Under the pieces are notes generated by a model that saw nothing but the letters and a program-made list of their open reading frames with translations, did not search any database and had not been told where the DNA came from. Below, piece after piece: positions 27,729 to 29,786 of a stretch of 32,823 bases of DNA; the stretch's first letter is position 1; every line of letters starts with the position of its first letter. The stretch covers positions 1,405,828 to 1,438,650 of the forward strand of contig JACKDW010000001.1 in assembly GCA_020633295.1 (NCBI GenBank), written 5' to 3'. The position numbers and the translations under genes are program-made. This stretch comes from Myxococcales bacterium. GTDB lineage: Bacteria; Myxococcota_A; Polyangia; Nannocystales; Nannocystaceae.

Positions 27729-28511
27729 CTAGATATCGAGGCGCTTGGCCTTGCGCTTGCCGCCGGAGCCCTTCTTCTTGCGCTGCTCCTGCTTCTTGGT
27801 CTCCAGCGCCTCGGTGCAGAACTTGTCGTGCTTCTCTTTCTGCTTGGGATCGCTCAGGTCGAGGCGCTCCCACTCCTTGTCGGTCAGCTGGCGCACGTAC
27901 TTGGCGACCTTCTGCTCGACCACCTGCCACTGCACTTCGACCTTCTCGAGCTCGACCTTGTCGCCGTCGTTGTAGGCCTTCGGGTAGTTGTTCATCACGT
28001 GCTCGTGGGCCTCGAGGATCGAGCTGATGAACTTGGACTGCTCGAGGATCCGCGGCTCCTTCGAGAACAGGCGCTTCTGCCACTGGTCGATCTTCGGCAC
28101 GTAGAGCTGCTTGAACTGGAACCACTGCTCCTCTTCGGGGGTCCCGGGCTCAACGCCGAAGGCCTTGGCGCCCTCCACCTTGACGGCCTCGCGGAAGCAC
28201 TCCAGCTCCTCCCAGTAATTGAGCATCTTGCTCAAGTTCTTCTTGTCGTACTTGTAGAGGTGCTTCTCGCCCTCGGGGTCCTTGCGGTCCCAGGCCTTGA
28301 GCTCGGCGTCGGTGGGCGGCGGGAGCCCGTTGGGACGCGGCTTCGGTTTGGGCGTGTAGGTCTTTTCGAACTCGGTCTTTGGATCGCTGGCGAGCGCGTC
28401 CTTGATCGACTGGCGCTCACCCTTTCCGCTGCACGCGGAGACCAACATCAGCGACAGTGTGAACGCACCCAATGTAGCCGTGCCAACAATCCGCATCGCG
28501 CCTGATCTCAT
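27729..28511 (-). CDS. Lys/Glu-rich lipoprotein, hypothetical
   Basis: ATG 28511 with GGAG 5 nt upstream. Signal MRSGAMRIVGTATLGAFTLSLMLVSAC with lipobox VSAC. The mature protein is highly charged (K/E/W-rich) with a KRKAKR tail. Confidence 0.6.
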   Translation of the reverse strand: MRSGAMRIVGTATLGAFTLSLMLVSACSGKGERQSIKDALASDPKTEFEKTYTPKPKPRPNGLPPPTDAELKAWDRKDPEGEKHLYKYDKKNLSKMLNYWEELECFREAVKVEGAKAFGVEPGTPEEEQWFQFKQLYVPKIDQWQKRLFSKEPRILEQSKFISSILEAHEHVMNNYPKAYNDGDKVELEKVEVQWQVVEQKVAKYVRQLTDKEWERLDLSDPKQKEKHDKFCTEALETKKQEQRKKKGSGGKRKAKRLDI

Positions 28512-28633
28512 TGGTTCTCCCTGCCCTGTCGTGAGGTTCAACGATCCGAAGCTGACCTCTGGTGCCAACTGTAACGAGCGATCACCCGGGCTGTAAAGCA
28601 GTTTCGGGGGGACCGGCCCCCAAGGCCTCTACC

Positions 28634-28681
28634 GTGAAGAAGGGACACGAAGCAGGGACACGAAGCAGGGACGAAGAACGG
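28634..28681. repeat. Tandem 13-bp direct repeats GGGACACGAAGCA x2 plus a degenerate third copy within a 375-bp divergent intergenic region
   Basis: Seen directly as GAAGAAGGGACACGAAGCAGGGACACGAAGCAGGGACGAAGAACGG. A GGGGGGACCGGCCCCC hairpin lies at 28603-28620. Confidence 0.6.
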
Positions 28682-28886
28682 CGAAAAAACCTGCTTGTCG
28701 GGCACTCTCGAACCTGTAGACTGCCCCCAACTGGCGCGGGTCCACTCCGCCTCGAGGCAACCCACTCGAGCGTCGACCCTGCGCCGCGCCACGAACACGG
28801 TCGCTGCCCCCCTCGTTCAACGCAGCACCAGTGCACCATCGGGCGCTCCAACACGACGAGAGTCAACACAGGAGAAGTCGTCTGCC

Positions 28887-29720
28887 ATGACAGTCGCCAG
28901 GAAGGCCAAGAAGTCCGCCAAGAAGGCCAACAAGAAGGTCGCCACCTCGAAGAAGGCGGCCAAGAAGACCGCGAAGAAGAAGGCCGCCAAGAAGGCCAAC
29001 AAGAAGGCCGCCAAGAAGTCGACCACGGCGCCCAAGAAGTCGACCAAGAAGAAGGCCGCCAAGAAGGCCAACAAGAAGGCCGCCAAGAAGGCCAACAAGA
29101 AGGCCGCCAAGAAAGCGACGAAGAAGGCAGCGACGAAGAAGGTCGGCAAGAAGGCGGGCAAGAAGAAAGCCGCCAAGAAGGCCGCTGCGCGCAAGTCGAC
29201 GAAGACGACCGCCGCCAACAAGAAGCCGCGCCGGCGCAGCGCGAACGCGCGCAAGCCCGTCGAGCTGACCGTCGGCGATCCCGCCCCGGCCTTCGAGCTC
29301 GACGCGGACAACGGCAAGACCTACTCGCTCACGCGTCTGCACGGCAAGCGCGTGGTCCTGTACTTCTACCCCCGCGACAACACGCCCGGCTGCACCACCG
29401 AGGCGTGTGACTTCCGCGACCTCCACGACGACTTCAAGTCCGCCAACACGATCGTCCTCGGGGTCAGCTCGGACTCGGTCGACTCGCACAAGAAGTTCCG
29501 CGCCAAGCTCGACCTGCCGTTCCCGCTGCTCTCGGACCCGAGCAACAAGATCGCCACGGCCTACGGCGCGTACGGCAAGAAGAAGGGCGGCACGGATCTC
29601 GGCTCAATCCGCAGCACCTTCATCATCAGCCCCGAGGGGCGCATCGAGACCATGTACACGGCCGTGCGCGTCAAGGGGCACGCGAAGACCGTGCTGCAGC
29701 AGGCCCAGGAAGCCGCCTAG
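28887..29720 (+). CDS. bcp: Peroxiredoxin Bcp (thiol peroxidase, PRX_BCP subfamily) with an about 110-aa N-terminal histone-H1/AlgP-like Lys-Ala repeat extension
   Basis: AGGAGAAG Shine-Dalgarno 9 nt upstream. The N-terminus is (AKKAAKK/ANKK)n. The C-terminal domain GDPAPAFELDADNGKTYSLTRLHGKRVVLYFYPRDNTPGCTTEACDFRD...VLGVSSDSVDSHKKF...LPFPLLSD...STFIISPEGRI has the T-P-G-C-T peroxidatic Cys motif. Confidence 0.8.
   Translation: MTVARKAKKSAKKANKKVATSKKAAKKTAKKKAAKKANKKAAKKSTTAPKKSTKKKAAKKANKKAAKKANKKAAKKATKKAATKKVGKKAGKKKAAKKAAARKSTKTTAANKKPRRRSANARKPVELTVGDPAPAFELDADNGKTYSLTRLHGKRVVLYFYPRDNTPGCTTEACDFRDLHDDFKSANTIVLGVSSDSVDSHKKFRAKLDLPFPLLSDPSNKIATAYGAYGKKKGGTDLGSIRSTFIISPEGRIETMYTAVRVKGHAKTVLQQAQEAA
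28896..29215 (+). repeat. Coding low-complexity repeat (GCCAAGAAGGCCAACAAGAAGGCCGCCAAGAAG-type 9-33 bp units) encoding the KKAA tail
   Basis: Seen directly as repeated gccaagaag / gccaacaagaag units. Confidence 0.7.
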
Positions 29721-29728
29721 CGGCGCGC

Positions 29729-29786
29729 CCGAACAGGCCTTCATCGAGCGGCCGCTGGTGTACCAGCGGCCGTTCGCCGTTCGGGC
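29729..29786. terminator. Nested inverted repeats (outer GCCCGAAC/GTTCGGGC; inner perfect CGGCCGCTGG-tgta-CCAGCGGCCG) between the convergent bcp and small-membrane-protein genes
   Basis: Seen directly. The inner stem is 10 bp with a 4-nt loop and is followed by a T-containing tract TTCGCCGTTCGG. It is a likely bidirectional terminator. Confidence 0.5.

Follow-up and report, generated by a model that had tools for sequence, protein, structure and literature searches.

A Bcp/PrxQ peroxiredoxin with a lysine- and alanine-rich tail in a Nannocystaceae genome is one of a large class of basic-tailed Bcps

The window analysed here is the whole 32,823-nucleotide stretch taken from a Myxococcales bacterium of the Nannocystaceae (assembly GCA_020633295.1, contig JACKDW010000001.1, positions 1,405,828 to 1,438,650, about 72% G+C), and our subject is its bcp gene, whose 277-amino acid (aa) product joins a long Lys/Ala tail to a peroxiredoxin domain. 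Bcp/PrxQ is usually seen as a cytoplasmic peroxidase that is small, soluble and rather dispensable. The characterised or solved bacterial Bcps are single domains of about 150-180 aa, to which the window protein adds a 120-aa polycationic N-terminal tail predicted to be disordered. Two independent ENA metagenome contigs carry an identical called product of 277 aa. The features of the gene are as follows, each with the evidence it rests on, including the list of open reading frames (ORFs), the G+C content of third codon positions (GC3) and the predicted local distance difference test (pLDDT) of AlphaFold2.

28887..29720, plus strand: bcp gene, ATG start, stop codon included, 277 aa, Lys/Ala tail plus Bcp/PrxQ domain (ORF list, sequence)
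28870..28875, plus strand: Shine-Dalgarno-like AGGAGA, 11 nt 5' of the ATG (sequence)
28887..29246, plus strand: tail-coding region, aa 1-120, predicted disordered (composition, GC3, AlphaFold2)
28905..29185, plus strand: repetitive DNA tract encoding the tail, periods 12 and 72 nt (Tandem Repeats Finder)
28977..29072, plus strand: 96-bp segment flanked by direct repeats, 32 aa, in frame, cleanly absent from the 245-aa variant P0001/L087 (DNA alignment)
29271..29648, plus strand: AhpC-TSA (thioredoxin-fold peroxiredoxin) domain, aa 129-254, the fold running on to about aa 276 (Pfam, PDB Bcp matches, pLDDT >90)
29370..29408, plus strand: active-site segment, P162-RDN-T166-PG-C169 (peroxidatic Cys) through C174 (resolving Cys) (sequence)

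The preliminary description of this locus, made from the letters alone, had assigned the C-terminal part of the protein to Bcp/PrxQ with a TPGCT active site, and the database searches bear this out. Residues ~125-277 form an intact Bcp/PrxQ peroxiredoxin part, with Pfam PF00578 (AhpC-TSA) matching aa 129-254 at E=1.9e-42 and 144.5 bits (cut-off 26). The closest structures in the PDB are all Bcps (5enu, 3drn, 5iph and 3gkk; E 1e-33 to 1e-28), and since Prx1/AhpC structures match at 1e-15 or weaker and Tpx at 1e-5, the nearest class is Bcp/PrxQ. With known members of that class (E. coli BCP, Xanthomonas campestris BCP 3gkk, Burkholderia 5enu and Sulfolobus Bcp1 3drn; identity to the solved structures about 50%), the domain shares the fold, the motif PxxxTxxC (here P162-R-D-N-T166-P-G-C169), the Arg and a Cys pair five residues apart; the resolving Cys of C169-TTEA-C174 lies five residues past the peroxidatic one, which is the alpha2 atypical 2-Cys arrangement. 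P162, T166, C169, C174 and R242 are invariant across an alignment of 35 homologues, and an AlphaFold2 model made with a 35-sequence alignment gives this region a beta/alpha thioredoxin-like peroxiredoxin fold with pLDDT >90. The best NCBIfam models for the 277-aa protein are PrxQ and Bcp, but it misses their equivalog thresholds, the E. coli-type model PRK09437 Bcp narrowly (126 bits against a cut-off of 140) and PerredPrxQDein with 148.6 bits against 260. Judged by fold, motif, catalytic residues and nearest relatives, the product is a member of Bcp/PrxQ and no equivalog of the PRK09437 or PerredPrxQDein proteins. Encapsulin targeting was considered and rejected: the weak NCBIfam encapsulin-cargo match is compositional (E=0.43), and the 'LTVG' string that had also prompted the idea belongs to LTVGD, the conserved first strand of the Bcp fold.

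The tail (aa 1-120) contains 50 K, 5 R, 34 A and no D or E (42% K, 28% A) and carries a net charge of +55. Its residues are confined to K/A/T/S/N types, and hydrophobic or amphipathic segments are absent; proline is scarce (2 P), SPKK motifs are lacking, and the protein as a whole has no signal peptide. In the AlphaFold2 model residues 1-125 have a pLDDT of about 50 and no secondary structure, so the tail is predicted to be intrinsically disordered. That it is encoded by repetitive DNA, as the preliminary description held, is confirmed by the tract listed above. The Bcp domain itself is near neutral (+3), and no difference in domain net charge separates tailed from tail-less Bcps (p=0.39); a charge compensation between tail and domain was rejected on this ground.

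An open frame alone is weak evidence that such a tail is translated, as the tract is nearly free of stops in all six frames, and this is the point in favour of reading it as an untranslated 5' leader to a tail-less Bcp started at an internal codon. The preliminary description had pointed to an internal Met just before the Bcp domain as the place where such a start would lie. No ATG, GTG or TTG was found in frame between codon 1 and codon 156, and an internal start was rejected. The first such codon, GTG156, lies about 30 residues inside the fold, where a start would remove the first ~30 fold residues including the conserved P134, F136 and L138, so that no start codon could yield an intact tail-less enzyme. 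Furthermore, tail and domain have the same GC3 of 0.96, against 0.38-0.51 in the tail's other two plus-strand frames. The block AACACAGGAGAAGTCGyCTGCCATGACAGTCGCC, which contains the Shine-Dalgarno site and the ATG, is kept in the sister genome L081 (GCA_030430565.1, whose Bcp protein is 91% identical over the aligned domain); the DNA 5' of the ATG shows 1- and 2-nt indels in L081, i.e., not multiples of three, whereas all length differences within the tail tract are multiples of three. Homologues also bear a like tail at the C-terminus, where it is necessarily read through from the domain. By the evidence of these sequence features the fusion is real and the tail is translated, and an untranslated leader is scarcely credible.

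Three mechanical ORFs that overlap the tract, 28817..29317 (minus strand), 28863..29489 (minus strand) and 28562..29410 (plus strand), were rejected as genes, being by-products of the stop-free repeats. Two of the overlapping alternative frames hold 7-8 stops in the homologous locus L086, and the sense frame alone is continuous with a conserved domain. One mechanical ORF over the tract has high GC3 and encodes a hydrophobic FLAAFL repeat; such ORFs could mislead gene callers.

The number of repeats varies between strains, a possibility that the preliminary description had raised. Within the aligned tail DNA, P0001/L087 is identical to the window save for one synonymous change and the in-frame 96-bp deletion; this 245-aa variant comes from short-read assemblies and could be either a polymorphism or a repeat collapse. 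Finished Myxococcus xanthus genomes settle the matter, as their Bcp domains are virtually invariant and their tails differ by in-frame indels of 4, 8, 12 and 18 residues (proteins of 254-274 aa).

A search with the whole protein retrieved 1245 relatives at E<=1e-10, and nearly all of the best 120 have a basic N-terminal extension of 35-260 aa. Because the whole-protein search favours candidates that share the tail, we also searched with the domain only, against 1.84 billion representatives of 50%-identity clusters, and classified the best 150 matches. Acid-poor, K/R-rich tails are present in 49 of these 150, at the N-terminus in 39 and at the C-terminus in 10, while 83 matches are without an extension and 18 have extensions of other kinds. 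The architecture is thus no curiosity of one genome, and the comparative pattern is stronger than the preliminary description knew: with about a third of the closest Bcp clusters tailed, at either terminus, the pattern argues that the location of the enzyme matters for its function in these lineages. The window's gene is an ordinary member of a large, unremarked class, hundreds of whose tailed entries are filed in databases under plain names such as 'peroxiredoxin Q/BCP'.

N-terminal tails are carried by Nannocystis exedens, N. pusilla, N. punicea and N. bainbridge, by Nannocystaceae, Myxococcota and one Bdellovibrionales among metagenome-assembled genomes (MAGs), and also by Phycisphaerales. 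The C-terminal tails, which are of AKKAAPAKK type, 31-251 aa long and net +9 to +46, belong to Myxococcus, Corallococcus, Pyxidicoccus, Archangium, Hyalangium and one Planctomycetota MAG. The Bcp of M. xanthus DK1622 (ABF89674.1 / Q1CXY1, 274 aa, P0401), for instance, ends in a tail of AKKAPAKK type of about 120 aa. Two suborders of one phylum therefore bear a like tail on opposite ends of the same enzyme, and every cultured myxobacterial genus found in the searches has a tailed Bcp. On a neighbour-joining tree of Bcp domains the tail was gained or lost at least 20 times, against a mean of 41 for shuffled labels, the tree being rough and the number of changes only indicative; as far as the domain sequences tell, the basic tail is clustered on the tree yet clearly polyphyletic. 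A domain scan of one genome per GTDB species returned mostly tail-less cyanobacterial Bcps, with a Lys-rich N-terminal tail at only two loci, in Nannocystis pusilla (L001) and in a Myxococcales MAG (L013).

The tails of homologues cannot be aligned with one another, but their composition is narrow. In the wider set of retrieved homologues, 142 N-terminal tails have a median length of 103 aa, a median net charge of +32, a K/(K+R) of 0.89 and hardly any acidic residues, and in these and 13 C-terminal tails the net charge is always strongly positive. The tail looks to be under selection for charge and composition and not for sequence. In ~895 kb of fetched loci, which is too small a sample to tell whether Bcp stands out among the proteins of a genome, the only such tails were those of the Bcp orthologues, a few short Lys-rich patches excepted.

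Some relatives depart from this picture. A Nannocystis sp. MAG encodes a tail-less Bcp (P0042, 164 aa) that is 63% identical to the window's domain, so tailed lineages may retain a tail-less paralogue in some cases, or some of their members may have lost the tail. Four others, namely a Myxococcota MAG locus with about 100 aa upstream of the Bcp domain (L014) and the proteins P0137, P0148 and P0066, have either an Ala/Pro/acidic extension or a basic N-terminal tail together with an acidic C-terminal one, recalling the acidic and basic regions of the Plasmodium peroxiredoxin PfnPrx.

At the level of the enzyme, the closest characterised analogue of the window protein is this PfnPrx of Plasmodium falciparum (formerly MCP1), an AhpC-TSA peroxidase whose Lys-rich tail is highly positive. 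The protein is nuclear and was found by localisation and ChIP (chromatin immunoprecipitation) to associate with chromatin genome-wide (PMC3064226). The authors of that study put forward a contact of the tail with DNA in the manner of the C-terminal tail of histone H1 (PMC3064226), so that the contact by the tail itself is in that case a proposal. Both proteins fuse a peroxiredoxin domain to a Lys-rich tail, with the order of the parts reversed in the window protein. PfnPrx differs in being eukaryotic, in having its tail at the C-terminus after an acidic middle region and in preferring glutaredoxin as reductant, and the two tails are without homology. The yeast protein Dot5/nTPx (PDB 2a4v) has a PrxQ/Bcp-class domain related to the window's (E=8e-21). 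It is a nuclear-localised peroxidase. That localisation is, however, a eukaryotic one and is independent of any polylysine repeat tail.

Among bacteria, the parallel lies with Dps, which is held on DNA by short flexible lysine-bearing tails, N-terminal in E. coli and C-terminal in mycobacterial Dps. This difference mirrors the alternation of Bcp tails between the two termini, although Dps is a ferritin-like dodecamer and its tails are about 10-25 residues long, as opposed to a 120-residue repeat tract. Nucleoid association and DNA condensation by Dps are described in PMC11077075. The composition and disorder of the window's tail, and the modular fusion of such a tail to unrelated domains, are shared by the bacterial H1-like repeat domains, namely AlgP, PhaF, Chlamydia Hc1/Hc2, the C-terminal domain of Anaeromyxobacter CarD, Streptomyces DdbA, and the tails of actinobacterial TopA, Ku and HupB. 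Hc2 also has repeat-encoded length polymorphism like that of the Bcp tail (PMC2848022). These domains have no sequence homology to the Bcp tail, and none of the fusion partners listed is a peroxidase.

The preliminary description knew of no characterised example of the architecture. This holds for bacteria in that our text searches of the open-access literature yielded no work on basic-tailed Bcps from bacteria, nor any paper for the accession numbers of the DK1622 protein, and two family surveys of peroxiredoxins mention no extensions or fusions; the only trace was one entry, 'Thiol peroxidase, Bcp-type' (AKV01056, KAAATKAAPKKAAAKP), in a supplement that tabulates low-complexity regions. It does not hold more widely, as PfnPrx is a eukaryotic Lys-tailed peroxiredoxin already characterised as chromatin-associated, and PfnPrx and Dps are precedents for the concept of a DNA-held antioxidant enzyme.

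In line with the preliminary description, which had suggested a nucleoid-tethered peroxidase, we propose that the tail would act as a tether that is non-specific for sequence. One polypeptide would combine a disordered N-terminal polycation (120 residues, +55) with a catalytically complete atypical 2-Cys Bcp/PrxQ, which would reduce H2O2 and organic hydroperoxides at Cys169, whereupon a Cys169-Cys174 disulfide would form and be recycled by thioredoxin. By analogy, an acid-free polylysine chain of this length will bind polyanions, and the tail probably tethers the enzyme electrostatically to DNA or another cellular polyanion, of which the nucleoid would be the most probable target. Peroxide removal would then be concentrated beside the DNA, as Dps tails do for ferroxidase and as proposed for the tail of PfnPrx. 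Because the repeats that build the tail are prone to slippage, its length drifts between strains with its charge retained. For this protein we infer peroxidase activity, DNA binding and any protective effect.

The precedents are what lead us to rate nucleoid tethering of an active peroxidase by its polycationic tail the best explanation, one we regard as slightly more probable than not. Besides PfnPrx and Dps, they comprise CarD, AlgP and PhaF, and Ku and topoisomerase I. CarD from Anaeromyxobacter has an H1-like C-terminal domain that functionally substitutes for the DNA-binding HMGA domain of its M. xanthus counterpart (PMC2919716, citing Garcia-Heras 2009). The Lys/Ala/Pro tails of AlgP and PhaF show DNA binding in vitro and are believed to link granules with the nucleoid (PMC9239181), and non-specific DNA binding is also a property of the Lys-rich low-complexity tails found in Ku, topoisomerase I and histone-like proteins (PMC6821194, PMC3553676, PMC7398561).

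Several observations weigh against nucleoid tethering. The preliminary description had called the tail H1-like, which is apt for its composition but not for its family, as the thresholds of the H1, Hc2 and AlgP families are missed: Pfam HC2 (PF07382) has no match to the 277-aa protein at E<=1, though certain homologues bear a precomputed PF07382 match, and NCBIfam hist_H1_lk_Burk reaches 17.1 bits against a cut-off of 80. We use 'H1-like' as a description of composition only, with no membership of the H1, Hc2 or AlgP families implied by the sequence. A search with the tail alone of a 5.8-billion-protein collection gave no scored match, because the composition correction of HMMER removes the tail's signal. 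A similar tail is present on AlgP, a protein that localises to polyphosphate granules (PMC9239181), so that DNA is not the sole candidate target. Myxobacteria are the bacteria richest in low complexity known (PMC6821194), which lowers the prior for a specific role of any given tail, and another protein of the window has an acidic low-complexity tail. Lastly, the neighbours of bcp (CcmH-like, lipoprotein, membrane proteins and a PQQ/BamB-like propeller) have no obvious link to DNA or redox functions.

Given the behaviour of AlgP, the main rival explanation, rather unlikely as we judge it, is a tether to some different polyanion, for example polyphosphate granules or RNA and ribosomes, where the enzyme would be concentrated instead of on the nucleoid. 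The KPAA-repeat H1-like tail of AlgP belongs to a protein that co-purifies and co-localises with polyphosphate granules in dependence on polyphosphate kinases (PMC9239181), PhaF, whose tail is homologous, was recently reported to be an RNA-binding activator of translation (PMC12818456), and a disordered polycation of +55 would, from its composition, have no intrinsic selectivity among polyanions. On the other hand, the same AlgP and PhaF tails bind DNA in vitro and are thought to join granules to the nucleoid (PMC9239181), and the conserved neighbourhood of bcp has no genes of polyphosphate or RNA metabolism. A tail with no targeting role at all, i.e., a tolerated low-complexity expansion that is perhaps a mere solubility aid or spacer 'bristle', would fit the top place of myxobacteria in the ranking of bacteria by low-complexity regions (PMC6821194), the acidic low-complexity tail on another gene of the window, the lack of sequence conservation among tails and the free variation in their length, even among M. 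xanthus strains and within the window's population. We nevertheless consider this improbable because of the tight compositional constraint on the 142 N-terminal and 13 C-terminal tails (acid-free, K over R, strongly positive) and because one and the same enzyme gained basic tails repeatedly, at either end of the chain, in several phyla. The restriction of such tails to Bcp orthologues in the fetched loci, a few short Lys-rich patches aside, also speaks against a neutral expansion.

Polycations bind anionic phospholipids. The tail might in that case direct the enzyme to anionic membranes, or else drive self-assembly or condensates, with a bias towards lipid hydroperoxides or a role as chaperone or holdase; the conserved neighbours are envelope proteins, and some PrxQ enzymes, e.g., Deinococcus DR0846, have chaperone activity (PMC6590489). 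A tail of K/A/T/S/N only, free of hydrophobic or amphipathic segments, on a protein with no signal peptide suits this poorly, and as the near-neutral Bcp domain has the same charge in tailed and tail-less relatives, nothing indicates intramolecular or self-coacervating charge pairing. We think it very unlikely.

Returning to nucleoid tethering, if the tail does hold the enzyme on DNA, bacteria would have, next to Dps, a second way of protecting the nucleoid locally from oxidative damage, and one that evolved independently of, and in parallel with, the chromatin-bound peroxiredoxin of malaria parasites. A broader form of the proposal, plausible to us but somewhat short of probable, is that Bcps with a basic tail are nucleoid-resident peroxidases that evolved repeatedly and span the whole phylum Myxococcota, with further cases in some Planctomycetota and Bdellovibrionota. 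Held on the chromosome by its tail and recycled by thioredoxin, the enzyme would remove H2O2 and organic hydroperoxides at the site of Fenton damage; if true, it would be the bacterial counterpart of PfnPrx and a peroxiredoxin analogue of Dps. Such an enzyme might relay oxidation to DNA-bound proteins. The tethering hypothesis is directly testable in M. xanthus DK1622, which is genetically tractable, through ABF89674.1.

The surroundings of the gene contain the following further features.

27729-28511, minus strand: divergent lipoprotein gene, 260 aa, no Pfam match (ORF list; orthologue length)
28636..28672, no strand assigned: 13-bp tandem repeat GAAGCAGGGACAC, 2.8 copies, in the divergent intergenic region (Tandem Repeats Finder)
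28683..28745, plus strand: upstream block of ~60 bp, one mismatch against the sister genome L081 (alignments)
29746..29775, no strand assigned: hairpin with a perfect 13-bp G+C-rich stem and no T-run, between bcp and a convergent minus-strand gene (RNA fold -53.4 kcal/mol, z = -5.7 against shuffled)

The preliminary description had drawn attention to an unusually long intergenic region of 375 bp with 13-bp tandem repeats upstream of bcp. The length is right if the lipoprotein starts at the ATG at 28511, giving 260 aa as in its orthologue (318 bp with the longest ORF), but 'unusually long' does not apply, as other gaps between ORFs in the window reach about 175-550 bp; the region is a divergent-promoter spacer. 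The 13-bp repeat, too, is confirmed, but not as a conserved regulatory feature. It was seen only in the contigs L083 and L087 of the same population, and it was rejected as a conserved operator, since it is a 36-bp insertion relative to L081, where it is missing, and is unaligned in L086. The ~60-bp block nearer the gene is better conserved, and L086, a more distant genome (64% identity), also retains its core CTCTCGAAC. The block may be a promoter or operator; a candidate sigma-70-like promoter, TTGTCG-N16-TAGACT at 28695-28722, matches 8 of 12 hexamer positions and is below the threshold of the promoter scan. The run of 6 A at 28684-28689, a little 5' of the candidate -35 hexamer, is 14 A in L083, a homopolymer length polymorphism. 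An RNA element in the long leader region of bcp was rejected, with no Rfam match there at E<=1. Downstream, the hairpin at 29746-29775 is likely a bidirectional terminator.

Two relatives share the window's gene order, CcmH-like / lipoprotein / bcp / ... / PQQ-BamB-like propeller / TPR. The lipoprotein, which is conserved beside bcp in three genomes, has a short basic stretch of its own at the C-terminus (KKQEQRKKKGSGGKRKAKRLDI, window 27732-27863, minus strand). In L086 (2563-2922), a GFA gene (glutathione-dependent formaldehyde-activating-like) follows bcp directly on the same strand, which is not the case at that position in the window. The acidic low-complexity tail mentioned above is the C-terminus (GEDDDEDAEEDAEEDAEDAEGDEEDAEDA, about 23920-24020) of a 635-aa protein with no Pfam match, encoded on the plus strand at 22154-24061, and the DNA for it reads K/T/R-rich in another frame.

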